Positions 16,407 to 22,868 are shown, counted from the stretch's first letter. The stretch is 42,354 bases of DNA from Thermoleophilia bacterium (GCA_017882325.1 JADGPQ010000003.1:1-42354), one strand, 5' to 3'. Made by a program: numbers and translations. The notes: generated by a model not told the origin, from the sequence alone.

Positions 16407-17560
16407 ACGCCGCCGCCCTCCGCGCGATCATTTTGGCGGCGGGGCTGTCGTCACGCATGCGGGAGCTTAAGCCGTTGCTCCCGCTTGACGCGGTTCCCGC
16501 GGTCCTCTGGGTCGCGGACGCTTACCGCGATGTGGGGCTCGAGGCCGTCGTCGTGCTCGGCTTCGGCGCGGAGCGCGTCGCCCCCCTGCTCAACGCGAGA
16601 GGGGTGCACTACGTGGTCAACCGGGGTTTCGAGGACGGCATGTACTCGTCGCTCCGTTGCGGCGTGCGGGCTCTGCCACCGGACGCCCGCGCCTTCTTCG
16701 TCCATCCCGTGGACTGCGCGCTCGTGCGCAGCGAGACGCTGGGCCTGCTGGCGCGTAGCGTCGGGGAGACGGGGGCCAGCGTCGTGTATCCCGTACACGA
16801 GGCCGAGCGCGGGCATCCTCCGCTCGTGCCTGCGGCGCTGCGCGACACTATCCTCGCGTCGGAGCCTGTGGGCGGCCTCAGGGAGCTGCTCGCACGGCGG
16901 GAGGCCGGGGCCTGCGAGGTGCAGGTCGACGATCCCAACGTGCTCCTCGACATGGATGACGCCGATGCCTACGAACGCCTTGCGGTGCGGGCCGCCCGCG
17001 AGCGCGTCCCGGATCCGGCCGCGTGCCGCCGACTCCTCGCGCGACTCCAGACGCCGGCGCCCCTGGTCGCGCACTCCCTGGCGGTCGCGGGCGTCGCGCG
17101 CCGTCTCGGCGCGGCGCTCCGCACCTCGGGTGTATCTCTCGATCTGAGGCTGCTCGAGGCTGCGGCTCTGCTCCACGACATCGCCCGCGCGACACCCGCG
17201 CACGCCGAAGCGGGCGCCCTTGTGCTCGAAGCCGAGGGCTACCCGCGGGTCGCTGCCGTCGTGCGCAGCCACATGCAGCTCCCGGGCCCGCCTCCCGCGC
17301 TGCCCGGCGAGCGCGAGGTGCTGTATCTCGCCGACAAGCTGACGGTCGGCAGCCGAACCATCGACCTCGACGGCAAGCGCCGGCGCGCCGAAGCCTTGTT
17401 CGCGAGCGATCCCGCGGCGCTGGACGCGGCTCGGATGCGGCTGGAAGCGGCGCGCGCCATTGAAGCGCGTGTCGCGTTTCTGGTGGGCCGGCCGGTGTCT
17501 GCCCTCCTTGACGCCAGCGTTCCGGCAGAGAGCGCGGGCGCGCCCAGCTCGGCGCCGTGA
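16403..17560 (+). CDS. MobA/MocA-like nucleotidyltransferase fused to a C-terminal HD domain
   Basis: ILAAGLSSRM..LKPLL, GMYSSL, PVD, GHP, DMDD; then HSLAV...AALLHDIA...H...H...YLADK. Confidence 0.9.
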   Translation: MNAAALRAIILAAGLSSRMRELKPLLPLDAVPAVLWVADAYRDVGLEAVVVLGFGAERVAPLLNARGVHYVVNRGFEDGMYSSLRCGVRALPPDARAFFVHPVDCALVRSETLGLLARSVGETGASVVYPVHEAERGHPPLVPAALRDTILASEPVGGLRELLARREAGACEVQVDDPNVLLDMDDADAYERLAVRAARERVPDPAACRRLLARLQTPAPLVAHSLAVAGVARRLGAALRTSGVSLDLRLLEAAALLHDIARATPAHAEAGALVLEAEGYPRVAAVVRSHMQLPGPPPALPGEREVLYLADKLTVGSRTIDLDGKRRRAEALFASDPAALDAARMRLEAARAIEARVAFLVGRPVSALLDASVPAESAGAPSSAP

Positions 17561-18327
17561 GCGACCGCGCGCAGATCAGGGCACTCCTCGCCTGCGACCT
17601 GGACGGGAGCCTGCTTGCCGGGGACGGGTCGCCGGCGCCCGGCATCGTCGAGGCGCTCGCCGCTCTCGCGGCGCGCGGAGCGCGGCTCGTCGTCTGCACG
17701 GGCCGTCCACTCCACGGCGCCGTCAAGGCGACCGCGGCCCTTCACGCTGCCCCGGTCGGCTACGTGTGTTATCACGGCGCGCTGGTCGTGGACGCGACTA
17801 CGGGCGAATGGCTCAGACACGTGACGCTCCCCTGCGACGTCGTCTCCGGCATCATCGGCGAGGCTCACCTGCTGGGCCTGTCGGCGACACTCTACGAAGG
17901 CGATGAGCGCCGAGATGTCGTCTCAGAGCTCCCCACCGCGGGGGGCGGTCCCTTCGCCGCGGGTGGCATCACCCGTCTCGTGTTGTCCGGCGACCCGGCC
18001 GGCGTCGCGGCCGCTCTCCCCGCGATCGCCGCATCCTGGGGTCGCAGCACCCACGTCGAGCGCGCGGGCGGCGGGACCGTCGCCATCTTGCCCGCCTCCG
18101 CGGACAAGGGTGAAGGGCTGCGCCTGATCGCCGCGCGCTTCGGCGTCCCTCTCACGCACGTCGTCGCCTGCGGCGACTCCGCCGCCGACGAGACCCTTCT
18201 GAGGGCCGCCGGGGTCTCCATCGCCGTCGGCGACGCTCCTCGCTTGCTGCGAGCCGCCGCGCAGCTCGTCGTGAGTCAGGACGACCTCGCCGAGGCGCTA
18301 CAGCGCGCGGCGGAGTCGTTGGACTGA
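17557..18327 (+). CDS. HAD-superfamily hydrolase, Cof/IIB type
   Basis: CDLDGSLL, CTGR, DKGEGL, CGDSAADE; GTGA coupling to the upstream gene. Confidence 0.88.
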   Translation: MSDRAQIRALLACDLDGSLLAGDGSPAPGIVEALAALAARGARLVVCTGRPLHGAVKATAALHAAPVGYVCYHGALVVDATTGEWLRHVTLPCDVVSGIIGEAHLLGLSATLYEGDERRDVVSELPTAGGGPFAAGGITRLVLSGDPAGVAAALPAIAASWGRSTHVERAGGGTVAILPASADKGEGLRLIAARFGVPLTHVVACGDSAADETLLRAAGVSIAVGDAPRLLRAAAQLVVSQDDLAEALQRAAESLD

Positions 18328-18377
18328 CTCGCGGCGATTCCGGCGGCGGCGACGCGGCCTGCGCGACGACTGACGCG

Positions 18378-18413
18378 CGAAGGGCGGCGGGGCTTTCACC
18401 CCGCCGCCCTTCG
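18378..18413. terminator. Perfect 15-bp hairpin between convergent genes
   Basis: cgaagggcggcgggg-ctttca-ccccgccgcccttcg. Confidence 0.7.
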
Positions 18414-18462
18414 TCGTCACGGCGATCGTCACCTGCTCGGGCGACGATCCCTGGCCAGTCCT

Positions 18463-19827
18463 TCAATCCACCTTCGGCAGTCTCGCGATCGACGCGGCGA
18501 TCGCCTCCTCCGGGTGGTCGTAATCCTCGAGCTTGCCGCTGAGGTAGGCGTCGTATGCGCCCAGGTCGAGAAAGCCGTGGCCGGTGAGGTTGAACAGGAT
18601 GTTCCTGCTCTCACCTGCCTCCTTGGCCGCAAGGGCCTCGTCGATGGTGGTGAGGATCGCGTGCGCGCTCTCCGGCGCCGGCACGATCCCTTCGGTCTGC
18701 GCGAAGAGCTGTGCCGCCGCGAAGACCTTCGTCTGCGGAACCGCCACTGCCTCCATCAGCCCCAGGTCATACGCGTGGCTGATGAGCGGCGCCATGGCGT
18801 GGTAACGCAGGCCACCGGCGTGGATGCCGGCCGGCATGAAGTCGTGCCCGAGCGAATACATCTTGAACAGCGGCGTGCTCTGCGCCTCGTCGCCGAAGTC
18901 GTAAACGAACTTGCCCTTGGTCAACGTGGGGCAGGCGGTGGGCTCCACGGCCAGCAGACGGGTGTTCGTCTTGCCGGCGAGGTTCTCGCGCAGGAAGGGG
19001 AAGGCGATGCCAGCGAAGCTGGAACCGCCGCCAACGCAGCCGACGATGACGTCGGGGTAGGCGTCGGCGTCCTGACACTGCAGGAGCGCCTCCTCGCCGA
19101 TGATCGTCTGGTGCAGCAGCACGTGGTTGGTCACGCTGCCCAGCGAGTACTTGGAACCGGGGTGAGTGACGGCGTCTTCCACGGCCTCGCTGATGGCGAT
19201 GCCGAGGCTGCCGAGCGATTCCGGGTCCTCGGCCAGCACGGCGCGGCCGGCGTTGGTCTGGTCGCTGGGGCTGGGGATGACGTTGGCGCCCCAAAGCTGC
19301 ATCATGCTGCGCCGATAGGGCTTCTGGTGGTAGCTCACCTTGACCATGTAGACCATGCACTCGAGGCCGAACATCTGGCAGGCCATGCTGAGGGCGCTGC
19401 CCCATTGGCCGGCGCCGGTCTCTGTGGCGAGGCGCGTGGTGCCGTCGAGCTTGTTGTAGTACGCCTGCGCGACGGCGGTGTTGCTCTTGTGCGAGCCGGC
19501 CGGGCTGACGCCCTCGTACTTGAAGAAGATCTTGGCCGGCGTGTCCAGCGCCTTCTCGAGGCCGGTGGCGCGGATCAGCGGTGAGGGCCTCCACATGCGA
19601 TAGATCTGGTGGATCTCCTCGGGGATCTCGATGTAGCGCTCCGCCGAGACCTCCTGGGCGATGATGCTGGGCGGGAAGATCGGCGCCAGGTCATCGGGGC
19701 CGGCCGGCTGCAGGGTCGCAGGGTTGAGCGGCGGCGATGGCGGCGTGGGGAGGTCGGCGACGATGTTGTACCACGCCTTGGGGATCCTCTCCTCGTCAAG
19801 GACGAACTTCTTCTTGTACTCGCTCAT
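18463..19827 (-). CDS. trpB2: Tryptophan synthase beta chain, type 2 (TrpB2, PLP-dependent)
   Basis: IPKAWYNI, WRPSPLIRA, KYEGVSPAGSHK (PLP Lys), TETGAGQWG, GCVGGGS, HAGGLRYH, PAPESAHA; GGAGG SD; no trpA nearby. Confidence 0.95.
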   Translation of the reverse strand: MSEYKKKFVLDEERIPKAWYNIVADLPTPPSPPLNPATLQPAGPDDLAPIFPPSIIAQEVSAERYIEIPEEIHQIYRMWRPSPLIRATGLEKALDTPAKIFFKYEGVSPAGSHKSNTAVAQAYYNKLDGTTRLATETGAGQWGSALSMACQMFGLECMVYMVKVSYHQKPYRRSMMQLWGANVIPSPSDQTNAGRAVLAEDPESLGSLGIAISEAVEDAVTHPGSKYSLGSVTNHVLLHQTIIGEEALLQCQDADAYPDVIVGCVGGGSSFAGIAFPFLRENLAGKTNTRLLAVEPTACPTLTKGKFVYDFGDEAQSTPLFKMYSLGHDFMPAGIHAGGLRYHAMAPLISHAYDLGLMEAVAVPQTKVFAAAQLFAQTEGIVPAPESAHAILTTIDEALAAKEAGESRNILFNLTGHGFLDLGAYDAYLSGKLEDYDHPEEAIAASIARLPKVD

Positions 19828-19961
19828 GACCTACCTCCTCTCGAAACGCGATGGCGGTGCGGATGCACGACTGGTGACTCCCTGGGTAGGGGAACGGGAA
19901 GACCACGGTGGTGTGGTCGGGGTGCGGGCAGGGCCCGCGCGGGATGTCGAGAATGGGCGCG

Positions 19962-20030
19962 CTACGCGCGCCAGAGCCAGCGACGCCGGGGGCGCGAGGT
20001 GCTGCGGCTGTTGGCGTCGTTGGTCGTCAT
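19962..20030 (-). CDS. trpL: Putative tryptophan attenuator leader peptide (MTTNDANSRSTSRPRRRWLWRA, 22 aa)
   Basis: Short ORF ending 134 nt upstream of trpB2, with two TGG codons (W-L-W) near the stop. It follows an extended -10, and a GC hairpin covers the second Trp codon and the stop. Confidence 0.75.
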   Translation of the reverse strand: MTTNDANSRSTSRPRRRWLWRA

Positions 20031-20040
20031 CGTGGGCGGG

Positions 20041-20049
20041 ATTGTACCA
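20041..20049 (-). promoter_or_regulatory. Extended -10 (TGGTACAAT) of the leader/trpB2 transcript
   Basis: Near-consensus TGn-TACAAT 10 nt before the leader ATG; a TTGCGT lies 19 nt further upstream. Confidence 0.65.
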
Positions 20050-20108
20050 CGAGAGGGAAGTGAGGACGCAAGCGCAATCGTAGCAAGCGATCCGCGGCTC
20101 ACGCCGCC

Positions 20109-21797
20109 TCAGCCGGCGACGGGCTTCTCTGGAGCGGGCGCGGTCGGCGCAGGCGCACCGCCCGGCAGGATTGTTTCCCTCAGGGGATAGGGCGAGCCCG
20201 GGTGCGCGAACAGGAAGCCCTGTCCGTAGCTGATACCGAGCGCCAGGAGGGCATCGAGCTGCGCCTGGGTCTCGATGCCTTCCGCCACCAGGCCGATACC
20301 GGCCTGCTGGCAGAAGTCACGCAGCGTGCCGACCAGCTTCTGCTTCACCACGGAACTCTCCAGATGGCGCGTCAGGCTCATGTCGAGCTTGATGAAATCG
20401 GGTTCGATCTCCACCATCGTCTGCAGGCCGGCATAGCCGGCGCCGGCGTCGTCGATGGCGATGCGGAAGCCTTGATCGCGCAGCCGGTCGACCACGTGGC
20501 GCATGTGGACGAAATCGTCGATGACGCTGTTCTCGGTGATCTCCATGACGGTCTGGCCGCGCAGCACCTCGGGCGTGGCGTCGATGAACTCCTGCACGGA
20601 GATGTCGCCGTGGGAGCGCGAGAACAGGTCGATGGGCTCCATGTTGATGAAGCGAAGGCAGTCCGCCGGCAGGGTCGCGCTGCCGCGTGCCGCCATCATG
20701 CGACAGAGGCGGTCGAGCTCGGGGACGCGGTTCTCGGCTCGCGCGACCTCGAAGAGGGCGTCGGGGCGGTGGAGCTCGCTCTGCAAGGGCCCGCGGGCGA
20801 GGAGCTCGTAGCCGATCACCGAGTAATCGCTCAGGCTGACGATGGGCTGGTAGACGCAGGTGATCTGAGCCTCGTGGATCACACGCTCGAACTCCGCGCT
20901 CAGGCGATGCTGGACCAAGCTGCGCTCCTGCTGGATGCCGCGGGTGGCGCGCTCGATGGCTTCGAGCAGGGCGCGCTTAAAGCGCACTTTGGGCGACTGC
21001 CCGAGGCGCGAATAGCCCACGTAGAGGTCGACGTGCGCCATGAACTTGCTCTCCAGCTCGCCGGCGAGCAGGTCGAGCAGCTGTTCCTCGAGGCGGCCCT
21101 TGACGAGGCGCAGGTCGTCTTCATCCACGAAGCCGCGGTCGCGCGCCGGGGCGAGGATGACGAGGAAAGCATTGCCGAGGCTCGAGACGGAGACGAAGTC
21201 CTCGTTGCGGATGAGGCGGCCACGCGTCTCGGAGAGACGCCTGCCGATGATGCGGAAGACGTCGTCCACGGCCTCGAAGCCTTGCTGCTGCTCGAGCGCG
21301 TGCACGCCGTCCAGTGTGACGTAGAGGATGCCGAGCTGGCTGTGGTCGAACAGGCGGCGCTGCACCTCGACCTGGACGCTGGCCAAAGTCGGCAGGCCCG
21401 TGATCTCGTCGTAGTAGACGGACGCGTCGCGCAGCACTTCGCTGACGGTCTGCAGCAGGCGCTCGGTGCGGAACGGCTTGGTGACGTAGGCGGATGCGCC
21501 GGAGCGGTTGGCCTCCATCATGTTGGCCAGCTCGGTCTTGGCCGTGAGGAACACGACGGGGATGTCCTTCGTGTAGCCGAACTGCAGTTCGCGGCACACC
21601 TGGTAGCCGTCCATGCCCGGCATCATGACGTCCAGCAACACGAGATGGGGGTGCTGCGTGTAGGCGAGCTCGAGACCATGCTCTCCGCTGTTGGCGGCCA
21701 CGGTCTCGTACCCCTGCGACTCAAGGGCGTCGCAGACGGTTCCTGTAAGCTCGACGTCATCGTCGATCACGAGGATCCGGATCTTCTCGCCGGACAT
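20109..21797 (-). CDS. Response-regulator receiver + degenerate GGDEF + EAL domain protein (probable c-di-GMP phosphodiesterase)
   Basis: REC: VIDDD, LLDVMMP, FLTAK, KPF. GGDEF remnant: DEITGLP, with the signature replaced by SLGNAF. EAL: YQPIV, YELLAR, EITE, DDAGAGY, IKLD, AEGIET, QGFLF. GGAGG SD before ATG 21797. Confidence 0.9.
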   Translation of the reverse strand: MSGEKIRILVIDDDVELTGTVCDALESQGYETVAANSGEHGLELAYTQHPHLVLLDVMMPGMDGYQVCRELQFGYTKDIPVVFLTAKTELANMMEANRSGASAYVTKPFRTERLLQTVSEVLRDASVYYDEITGLPTLASVQVEVQRRLFDHSQLGILYVTLDGVHALEQQQGFEAVDDVFRIIGRRLSETRGRLIRNEDFVSVSSLGNAFLVILAPARDRGFVDEDDLRLVKGRLEEQLLDLLAGELESKFMAHVDLYVGYSRLGQSPKVRFKRALLEAIERATRGIQQERSLVQHRLSAEFERVIHEAQITCVYQPIVSLSDYSVIGYELLARGPLQSELHRPDALFEVARAENRVPELDRLCRMMAARGSATLPADCLRFINMEPIDLFSRSHGDISVQEFIDATPEVLRGQTVMEITENSVIDDFVHMRHVVDRLRDQGFRIAIDDAGAGYAGLQTMVEIEPDFIKLDMSLTRHLESSVVKQKLVGTLRDFCQQAGIGLVAEGIETQAQLDALLALGISYGQGFLFAHPGSPYPLRETILPGGAPAPTAPAPEKPVAG

Positions 21798-21917
21798 GGT
21801 CCTCCCGCCCGTGGCCCGCGCGGAGTGCGCCGCATACCCTCTATCGGCCGTCATCCGCGAAACGTTTACACAGTAGACTAGTCGGAGCACGGAAGCACGC
21901 GACGACGGGAGACGCAG

Positions 21918-22868
21918 ATGAAGGGGTACGGGCCCGCAGACTCTTTGCAGACGCCGCGCTTCGCGGGCATCTCCACGTTTCTGCGCCTGCCCCACACCAC
22001 GCATCTCGACGCTGTGGACGTGGCGTTCGTGGGCCTGCCCTTCGACACCGGCGTGAGTTTCCGCGCCGGGGCGCGCTTCGGGCCCAAGGCCATCCGCGAG
22101 GGGTCCCTGGCCCTACGCCCCGACTACAATCCCGCGCAGCGTGTCGCGGTCTTCGACCGTCTGTCGGCGATCGACTACGGGGATGCGTCCATCGTCCCCG
22201 GCTTCACCGACCGCTCCTACGACAAGATGTCCGCCGCGCTGCGCGTGGTCCACGAGGCCGGCGCGGTGCCCATCGGGTTCGGCGGCGACCACAGCGTGCT
22301 CCTCGCCGAGCTGAGGGCCGCGGCCGCCACGCACGGCCCCGTCGCGCTGATCCAGTTCGACGCGCACAGCGACACCTGGGACGAGTACTTCGGGGAGAAG
22401 TTCACGCACGGCACGGTGGTGCGACGCGCCACCGAGGAGGGGCTGGTCGACGCCGCGCGATCGACGATGATGGGCATGCGCGGCGGGCTCTTCGGCCCCG
22501 ACGACCTGGATGATGCGCGGGACCTGGGGTTCACGGTGATCTCTTGGGACGACCTCGCGCAGCTGGGGACCGGCGCGGTCGCGGCCGCCGTGGAACGTGC
22601 CGGCGGCAAGGCGTTCCTCACTTTCGACATCGACTTCCTCGACCCGGCGTTCGCGCCCGGCACCGGTACGCCCGAGTGCGGCGGCCCCTCGTCGATGCAG
22701 GCGCTGGCGCTGCTTCGCGCCTGCCGGGGCCTGCAGATCGTCGGCGCAGATGTTGTGGAAGTGCTCCCCGACCTCGACAGCTCGCACCTCACGGCGACGC
22801 TCGCCGCGACGGTCGCGTGGGAGATCCTGAGCCTCGTGGCCGTCACGCTTTCGGACGGCGCCGCGTGA
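21918..22868 (+). CDS. speB: Agmatinase / ureohydrolase (arginase family)
   Basis: RAGARFGP, GGDHS, DAHSD, HGT, TFDIDFLDP..APGTGTPE, DVVEV. Substrate could also be a guanidino acid. Confidence 0.88.
   Translation: MKGYGPADSLQTPRFAGISTFLRLPHTTHLDAVDVAFVGLPFDTGVSFRAGARFGPKAIREGSLALRPDYNPAQRVAVFDRLSAIDYGDASIVPGFTDRSYDKMSAALRVVHEAGAVPIGFGGDHSVLLAELRAAAATHGPVALIQFDAHSDTWDEYFGEKFTHGTVVRRATEEGLVDAARSTMMGMRGGLFGPDDLDDARDLGFTVISWDDLAQLGTGAVAAAVERAGGKAFLTFDIDFLDPAFAPGTGTPECGGPSSMQALALLRACRGLQIVGADVVEVLPDLDSSHLTATLAATVAWEILSLVAVTLSDGAA

Follow-up and report, generated by a model that had tools for sequence, protein, structure and literature searches.

The physiological role of the TrpB2 enzymes is debated, with indole salvage and the use of O-phosphoserine both under consideration. 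How does a cell that keeps a stand-alone trpB2 gene regulate it, and does this regulation tell us what the enzyme supplies? We addressed this question at a trpB2 locus in a 42,354-nucleotide stretch of DNA from a Thermoleophilia bacterium (GCA_017882325.1 JADGPQ010000003.1:1-42354), hereafter called the window; all features described lie on its minus strand unless stated otherwise. A previous inspection of this DNA without database searches, hereafter the sequence-only reading, had pointed to a short open reading frame (ORF) with tryptophan (Trp) codons upstream of trpB2 and had proposed that it encodes the leader peptide of a Trp-sensing attenuator. We find that this ORF is a conserved Trp-codon leader specific to trpB2, as seen in the loci of relatives, in the distribution of a short sequence motif and of a covariance model, and in the preservation of its reading frame. 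The leader very probably contains a ribosome-mediated Trp sensor. The complete scheme that we favor is a ribosome-mediated Trp attenuator dedicated to the stand-alone trpB2, in which a second leader hairpin and the factor Rho would bring about termination and the gene would be on when Trp is short; our confidence in this scheme as a whole falls a little below even.

A Trp-codon leader ORF conserved upstream of trpB2

The coordinates of the leader and of trpB2 were read directly on the minus strand of the window. The leader ORF, MTTNDANSRSTSRPRRRWLWRA, comprises 22 codons and a stop (19962..20030; ATG at 20030, TAG at 19964-19962) and ends in W-L-W-R-A. Its sensor codons, TGG-CTC-TGG (19971..19979, with the TGGs at 19979-19977 and 19973-19971), occupy columns that are invariant in both of our alignments, A1 and A2. 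An extended -10-like box, TGGTACAAT (20041..20049), has the ATG 10 nt downstream, and no Shine-Dalgarno (SD) sequence was found before this ATG on the minus-strand reading. The positions that the sequence-only reading had assigned to the -10 box, the ORF, its TGG codons, the first hairpin and the motifs CCTACC and GGTAGG were each confirmed in this way. A promoter consensus scan of the leader region returned no sites, since such a scan needs both hexamers and thus misses an extended -10 promoter.

Aligning the regions upstream of trpB2 across relatives, the check that the sequence-only reading had recommended, revealed a short Trp-codon ORF that is both conserved and specific to trpB2. All 18 same-genus loci with DNA 5′ of the trpB2 orthologue (84-96% identity) carry a short ORF ending in ..W-[L/A]-W-R-A-TAG, of which the N-terminal part differs in sequence and length. 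Among the 80 loci compared, the Trp leader ORF is present at 43 of the 44 trpB2 orthologues that are at least 73% identical and at none of the 36 that are at most 67% identical, which belong to other classes and phyla. An exact 21-nt motif of the leader was found in 44 of 54 genomes of the genus (the reversed control gave 0 matches), and it occurs once per genome, apart from genomes G021 and G062 with two copies each, one of the G021 copies lying at a contig end. The motif also tracks the enzyme: in a set of 25 genomes, it is present in the 21 with TrpB2 (21/21) and missing from the 4 without (4/4).

Beyond the genus, a covariance model (R1) built on 44 leaders gave one strong match per genome in 76 of the 89 genomes of the Thermoleophilia family, covering 10 of its 11 genera. 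We fetched six weaker matches, and all six lie directly 5′ of trpB2 orthologues; two of them belong to the two trpB2 paralogues of a single genome, G088, each with a leader ORF of its own. These paralogues (L135 on contig C58 and L136 on contig C73) are 76% and 75% identical to the trpB2 of the window, and in one of their leaders there is just one Trp codon. Within the genome of the window (G000), the motif and the model match this site only, and in the one congener inspected for this purpose (G002) no Trp leader ORF precedes trpE of the trpEGDCFBA operon. Such conservation in relatives places the leader element far beyond chance. The assembled set comprises 48 distinct leaders, encoding 46 distinct peptides.

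The arrangement of promoter and ORF is likewise preserved. The pattern TRnTAnnnT-N10-ATG occurs in 44 of the 48 unique leaders, and in the remaining four, 8-11 nt separate the -10 box from an in-frame ATG. In all 44 leaders with the 10-nt spacing, the ATG is in frame with the Trp codons without an intervening stop, while the distance from ATG to Trp takes 12 values between 27 and 108 nt, all of them multiples of three. Because the frame is kept over 12 ORF lengths, the conserved leader ORF is very probably translated. The -10 spacing further suggests that the transcript would start 0-4 nt before the AUG and be nearly leaderless. Leaderless starts are common in Actinomycetota (bioRxiv 10.1101/834739).

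A conserved TTGAC stands about 8 nt 5′ of the extended -10 box at ten loci (L037, L043, L061, L064, L065, L067, L068, L070, L071 and L084); it is too near the -10 box for a standard -35 element and may represent an operator or an unusual promoter element. A search of metatranscriptomes returned 24 runs, all of them contigs sharing 7-14% of the words, of which 4 were compared at 85% likeness. Contigs of relatives span the trpB2 coding region; as contigs, they show no transcript starts, ends or levels and may derive from DNA. One contig of 136 nt (19797-19922) crosses the start of trpB2, and the leader is covered in run X1 only, up to about 20003, with no contig upstream of 20004 in the 4 runs.

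Leader hairpins and the probable site of Trp sensing

The 46 distinct peptides are 14-41 residues long, 26 having two Trp and 20 having three, and their two or three TGG codons fall inside the last 5-9 codons. The Trp patterns across the family are diverse (WLW, WAW, WRRWLW, WRCWLW, WFLRW, WRAWRA, WSGRRW), and one leader has a single W. The last UGG is nevertheless always the first codon of UGGCGCGCC, which forms the 5′ arm of hairpin 1 (hp1; 19956..19972), GGCGCGC-GUA-GCGCGCC, with 7 bp and a predicted energy of about -13.7 kcal/mol. Within the 5′ arm of hp1 fall the Arg and Ala codons, preceded by the final two bases of the second TGG, and the stop codon sits in the loop and reaches the first base of the 3′ arm. 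The wobble base of the Ala codon, which is the first base of the loop, varies freely (G, C, T). Moreover, in genus g23 (G090, G092, G093 and G096-G099) and at loci L067, L068 and L084, a sense codon (TTG, CCG, TCG or CGC) stands in place of the TAG; in the DNA of L067, L068 and L084, the reading frame continues for 9 nt to a TGA just past the 3′ arm of hp1, and hp1 is kept. The variable number and spacing of the Trp codons, combined with a last UGG that is fixed in hp1, argue for the sensing of codons rather than of a peptide motif, and the sequences fit a codon sensor locked to an RNA hairpin.

These features also bear on a different proposal, in which WxWRA-stop would act as a TnaC-like arrest peptide, responding to free tryptophan within the exit tunnel instead of to tRNA charging. 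The C-terminal residues are indeed the conserved part of the peptide and stand directly before the stop, and the tna leader has, as here, a C-rich tract after its peptide. However, the R-A residues are encoded by the hp1 stem and the Ala wobble base is free to vary; several genomes replace the stop and extend the ORF by 9 nt while retaining hp1; and neither the number nor the spacing of the Trp residues is constant, down to a single W in one leader. In addition, the hallmark residues of TnaC are absent, and induction by Trp would be senseless for an enzyme that makes Trp. We regard an arrest peptide as highly improbable.

Downstream of hp1, a pyrimidine-rich spacer (19939..19955) with a conserved GACAYCCC, recognizable as conserved alignment columns and ending in GACAUCCC, leads to hairpin 2 (hp2; 19924..19938), GCGGGC-CCU-GCCCGC, which is followed by ACCCC without a U-tract. 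Hairpin 3 (hp3; 19901..19918), GACCAC-ACCACC-GUGGUC, comes next. Pairing was counted over the 44 leaders of alignment A2. For hp2, 97.7% of the cells are paired, and two of its pairs show compensatory changes, with U:A replacing C:G in 8 sequences and A:U replacing G:C in 1; the hairpin is present in five of the six distant family members fetched and weakened in the sixth. For hp3, 85.1% of the cells are paired, and four of the six pairs changed on both sides. The whole structure has 24 double-change cells against 4.8 in shuffles, with none of 500 shuffles reaching as high a value, and shifting the partners by 1-3 columns lowers the pairing from 93.8% to between 27% and 60%. Together, hp2 and hp3, which go beyond what the sequence-only reading had described, are the strongest candidates for the element under regulation. 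Inspection by eye showed no covariation of the spacer with the hp2 variant GUGGGC.

The first half of this leader resembles a classical attenuator with its 1:2, 2:3 and 3:4 pairings, except that the 3:4 element is short and followed by ACCCC. The counterpart of the 2:3 pairing is a helix of 5 bp, here termed 2:3a, in which GCGCG of the hp1 3′ arm pairs with a CGCGC that overlaps hp2 by 2 nt. To represent the stalled state, the RNA was masked up to 13 nt past the first UGG; in the resulting folds of most leaders, 2:3a forms with -5 to -11.6 kcal/mol while the 3′ arm of hp2 is still to be made.

On this basis, we propose the following scheme. Transcription would start a few bases 5′ of a nearly leaderless, 22-codon ORF lacking an SD sequence, the last UGG of which lies in the 5′ arm of hp1. 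When Trp is sufficient and charged tRNA-Trp is plentiful, the ribosome would reach the stop codon and cover the 3′ arm of hp1, so that hp2 could form about 25 nt downstream, and transcription would terminate prematurely within the C-rich leader of about 115 nt, most likely through Rho; hp2 and hp3 might act as a pause or as organizers of C-rich loading segments. When Trp is short, the scarcity of tRNA-Trp would stall the ribosome on the UGG codons, where it would mask the 5′ half of the hp1 stem. This would release the 3′ arm (GCGCG) for pairing with the CGCGC that extends into the 5′ side of hp2; hp2 would be blocked, and transcription would run into trpB2. The net effect would be that TrpB2, which yields Trp from indole, is made when Trp is short.

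From the probable sensor to trpB2 expression

The tract that contains hp2 and hp3 (19846..19961) is, by its composition, C-rich and G-poor and constitutes a candidate Rho-loading region. The 116 nt from the stop of the leader ORF to 18 nt before the trpB2 ATG hold 48% C and 22% G, and the C-over-G skew of 0.37-0.39 falls within the top 0.03% of 100-nt windows genome-wide; across the 48 leaders, the best skew has a median of 0.325. The C-rich, G-poor tract noted in the sequence-only reading is thus real and conserved, and its statement that no canonical terminator separates the leader from trpB2 also stands, as a terminator scan of 19500-20500 found no minus-strand hairpin followed by a T-run. 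Canonical terminators do exist in this genome, for example GC stems of 14-17 bp followed by CTTTTCTT: across 755 genomic T-rich octamers, a hairpin of -25 kcal/mol or stronger lies just upstream of 15 and just downstream of 2. Since the genome uses U-tract terminators, their absence from the leader is meaningful.

A gene for Rho is present (618 bits against a cut-off of 509), and from the sequences a Rho-dependent output is plausible. C-rich single-stranded segments between small hairpins, as found here, resemble composite Rho-loading sites. Rho has been proposed for actinobacterial leader peptides without terminators (PMC1262725), and termination in the 5′ leaders of a mycobacterium is described as dominated by Rho (bioRxiv 10.1101/2022.06.01.494293). 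The latter paper also points to a problem with bicyclomycin binding to one actinobacterial Rho. Owing to the composition of the tract, the presence of rho and these precedents, we favor, with somewhat less than even confidence, Rho as the output, in the form of premature termination in the C-rich leader gated by hp2.

Termination could also be independent of any factor, with hp2, alone or together with hp3, serving as a U-less, "I-shaped" terminator and 2:3a as the antiterminator. The geometry is like that of E. coli trpL: segment 1 carries the Trp codons, the stop falls in the 1:2 loop, and a covarying 3:4 hairpin follows about 25 nt further on. The 3′ end of trpB2 itself has a U-less GC hairpin. 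Against this, hp2 has only 6 bp and runs into ACCCC, and the leader scan lacks a terminator in a genome that has hairpins with U-tracts. A mycobacterial RNA polymerase reportedly requires a U-tract. The actinobacterial trp attenuators described in PMC1262725 have poly-U tracts. On balance, factor-independent attenuation appears quite unlikely.

Another way to read the same sensor places the output in translation: an alternative fold would hide or free the trpB2 SD, and any loss of transcript would be secondary polarity. The hiding and freeing of an SD by an alternative fold has a precedent in ermC. At the present locus, the trpB2 SD is GGAGG (19834..19838), within a strong and conserved ribosome-binding site (RBS), GAGAGGAGGUAGGUC, and many CU-rich segments of the leader can pair with it. 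Folds stalled at the first Trp codon (W1) pair the freed 3′ arm of hp1 and the spacer with the RBS at L064, L065, L070 and partly L001, and a translational attenuator with a leaderless small ORF has been shown in M. smegmatis (bioRxiv 10.1101/834739). The comparative evidence does not bear this reading out. The specific pairing that the sequence-only reading had suggested, CCUACC (19890-19885) with GGUAGG (19835-19830), finds no support in the distribution of its two halves, CCTACC being found in 3 of the 48 unique leaders and GGTAGG in the RBS region of 27. The 26 nt past the stop show no greater complementarity to the RBS than do composition-matched shuffles (mean z of 0.06; none of 48 leaders below -2), and RNAalifold detected no conserved SD-sequestering helix. 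When 14 leaders were folded in the free, stalled and stop-occupied states, the unpaired probability of the SD showed no consistent shift; the comparison with and without the ribosome-covered segment that the sequence-only reading had called for accordingly gave no consistent change in SD accessibility. Furthermore, the UGG codons cannot pair with a G-rich SD, and a three-segment geometry would turn the gene off on stalling, the wrong direction for a Trp-making enzyme. We therefore consider translational output unlikely.

This question of direction can be approached from the enzyme and from other phyla. TrpB2 enzymes form Trp (Busch 2014; Hettwer & Sterner 2002, both as cited in PMC11917138). 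Upstream of the trpB2 (1477-2844) of a Chloroflexota metagenome-assembled genome, at L075:938-1219 (+), we found a T-box with 100.2 bits (gathering score 93), about 260 nt 5′ of the gene and with a specifier read as UGG (GAA-UGG-A); no other T-box reached the gathering score in the scan of 40 loci with more distant trpB2 orthologues. A UGG T-box before trpB2 fits induction of the gene by uncharged tRNA-Trp, and we consider it probable that the trpB2 of the window is likewise on under Trp starvation. In the reverse logic, stalling would free the 3′ arm of hp1 to repress trpB2, so that TrpB2 would be made only with plentiful Trp-tRNA. In family-level relatives with the RBS GGAGGUGCGUC, the freed GCGCGCC(U/C)CU can form up to 10 contiguous pairs (paired by hand for L064); pairing of the 3′ arm with the RBS is also predicted in the W1-stall folds, and any three-segment scheme has such polarity. 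This pairing is, however, no better than in shuffles and is lost in the main genus, which has the RBS GGAGGUAGGUC. Because TrpB2 enzymes form Trp and a UGG T-box precedes trpB2 in a Chloroflexota genome, the reverse logic is very unlikely.

Several observations weigh against the attenuator gated by hp2 and Rho, which remains our preferred scheme, and deserve to be considered together. Although 97.7% of the hp1 cells are paired, no pair changed on both sides, and because its stem never does so, hp1 is not separable from coding constraint. Pairing in the 5-bp helix 2:3a amounts to 92.3%, but no covariation accompanies it and it could not be told apart from shuffles; among family-level relatives, those with 3a = CUGCGGGC have a weaker or displaced version, and at equilibrium hp2 outcompetes 2:3a in most leaders, so that the switch would need to be kinetic. 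The nearly leaderless start is deduced from the promoter spacing. As for the output, a genome with canonical U-tract terminators and a leader without one represent a real departure from the classical design, and the C-rich RNA 3′ of hp2 would be free in both states, which makes it hard to see how loss of hp2 would stop Rho. Finally, one orthologue above the 73% identity level (L042, with a TrpB2 87% identical) retains the promoter box and the beginning of the ORF, whereas its Trp codons, hp1 and hp2 are gone; to judge from its sequence, this exception looks like a natural decay of the whole attenuator.

The trpB2 gene and its genomic context

The gene downstream of the leader (18463..19827) encodes a TrpB-like, pyridoxal phosphate-dependent enzyme of the TrpB2 class with 454 amino acids. 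The protein scores above the TrpB2 cut-offs (NF009057, 722.8 bits against 366; TIGR01415, 628.4 against 518.85) and below the TrpB1 cut-off (TIGR00263, 136.3 bits against 392.45). The gene is monocistronic, and its description as stand-alone in the sequence-only reading was borne out, with the next gene, for a HAD hydrolase, convergent on the plus strand (17557-18327). Between the two, a 14-bp GC hairpin without a U-tract (18379..18412) is likely a 3′-end structure. On the other side, a response-regulator/EAL gene with receiver, degenerate GGDEF and EAL domains (20109..22004) ends 60 nt before the -10 box; an EAL C-terminus also precedes the leader in several congeners. A scan of 18000-22500 against Rfam, at E values up to 10, returned no match to the leader, including Trp_leader (RF00513) and any T-box; its only hits were spurious microRNA and small-RNA matches on the hairpin 3′ of trpB2.

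Whether the genome also has trpA and trpB1 had been raised by the sequence-only reading. Neither was found in the assembly of the window, which has trpE, trpC and trpF, by hidden Markov models (HMMs) or by tblastn with the G002 proteins; as this assembly is 92% complete in 328 contigs, loss and incompleteness are not separable. Of 24 congeners, a Trp_syntA match was obtained for 22, and trpB1 is found in the majority, frequently as two copies, so TrpB2 is normally an extra Trp synthase beta subunit in this genus. On contig C254 (682-3245), trpC-trpF is followed by a cupin gene and not by trpB1-trpA. The start of contig C40 (about 400-950) has a weak match (55 aa, 53%) to the homologue of the gene located two downstream of trpA, and on the strength of this weak match, a trpB1-trpA pair may lie in the assembly gap beyond it.

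Significance and comparison with known systems

As direct genomic evidence, a dedicated Trp-codon sensor kept across a bacterial family indicates that for the cell TrpB2 is an enzyme that supplies Trp and is turned on when charged tRNA-Trp falls short. If the scheme is correct, the enigmatic TrpB2 would be induced by starvation to supply Trp throughout a family of soil Thermoleophilia. The element also extends the small group of leader-peptide attenuators lacking intrinsic terminators by a natural case with many members, and its 48 leaders and 46 peptides are suited to testing how ribosome position governs Rho-dependent or other termination in high-GC Actinomycetota. Our search of the literature on trpB2 regulation yielded no description of a Trp leader-peptide element and, among the papers listed, nothing relevant on control of trpB2 by a T-box, attenuation or TRAP, nor did the literature searched describe a terminator-less, Rho-gated, nearly leaderless Trp attenuator for any trp gene. 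Such a design, in which a nearly leaderless peptide would gate Rho termination through ribosome-dependent remodeling of hp2 within a C-rich tract, is one that we put forward tentatively, as more doubtful than the Rho output itself.

The leader is closest in its sensor to the trpL type, represented by E. coli (RF00513) and by the predicted Corynebacterium and Streptomyces trp attenuators (PMC1262725): it has an ORF with two or three Trp codons near its end, regulatory codons in the 5′ arm of a hairpin, the stop in the loop, a second hairpin at a fixed distance, a possible competing 2:3 pairing, and a position 5′ of a Trp-forming gene. In contrast to that type, no U-tract follows the second hairpin, Rfam gives no match at E values up to 10, no SD precedes the leader ORF, which starts about 10 nt past the -10 box, and a C-rich leader of 130-150 nt separates the ORF from a target that is a lone trpB2 and not a trp operon. 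The "trpB2A" of PMC1262725 is the second trp operon of C. diphtheriae and has a classical attenuator.

Other systems share different parts of the design. The mycobacterial poly-Cys element Ms5788A (bioRxiv 10.1101/834739) has a leaderless small ORF, as predicted here, which carries its regulatory codons at the 3′ end and is likewise not followed by an intrinsic terminator; it senses tRNA charging for the amino acid of the downstream gene, as we infer for trpB2; there, however, the Cys codons pair with the next SD, whereas the UGG region cannot do so and no significant anti-SD complementarity is seen here. TnaC and the Rho-dependent leader-peptide attenuators also combine a leader peptide with a C-rich untranslated tract and no intrinsic terminator, and in them, too, the position of the ribosome is proposed to decide Rho termination. 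The leaders mgtL and corL belong to the latter group. The present element differs from TnaC in that the peptide motif is absent, the proposed polarity is opposite, with Trp shortage inducing the gene, and the ribosome would stall at sense codons and not at the stop. The Trp T-box of the Chloroflexota trpB2 would apply the same regulatory logic to trpB2 in another phylum, although a T-box RNA senses the tRNA directly, and the Rfam scan of 18000-22500 found none in this leader. Whereas the sensor follows the classical pattern, the element departs from it in its predicted nearly leaderless start, its C-rich structured leader, its target gene and the lack of a terminator.

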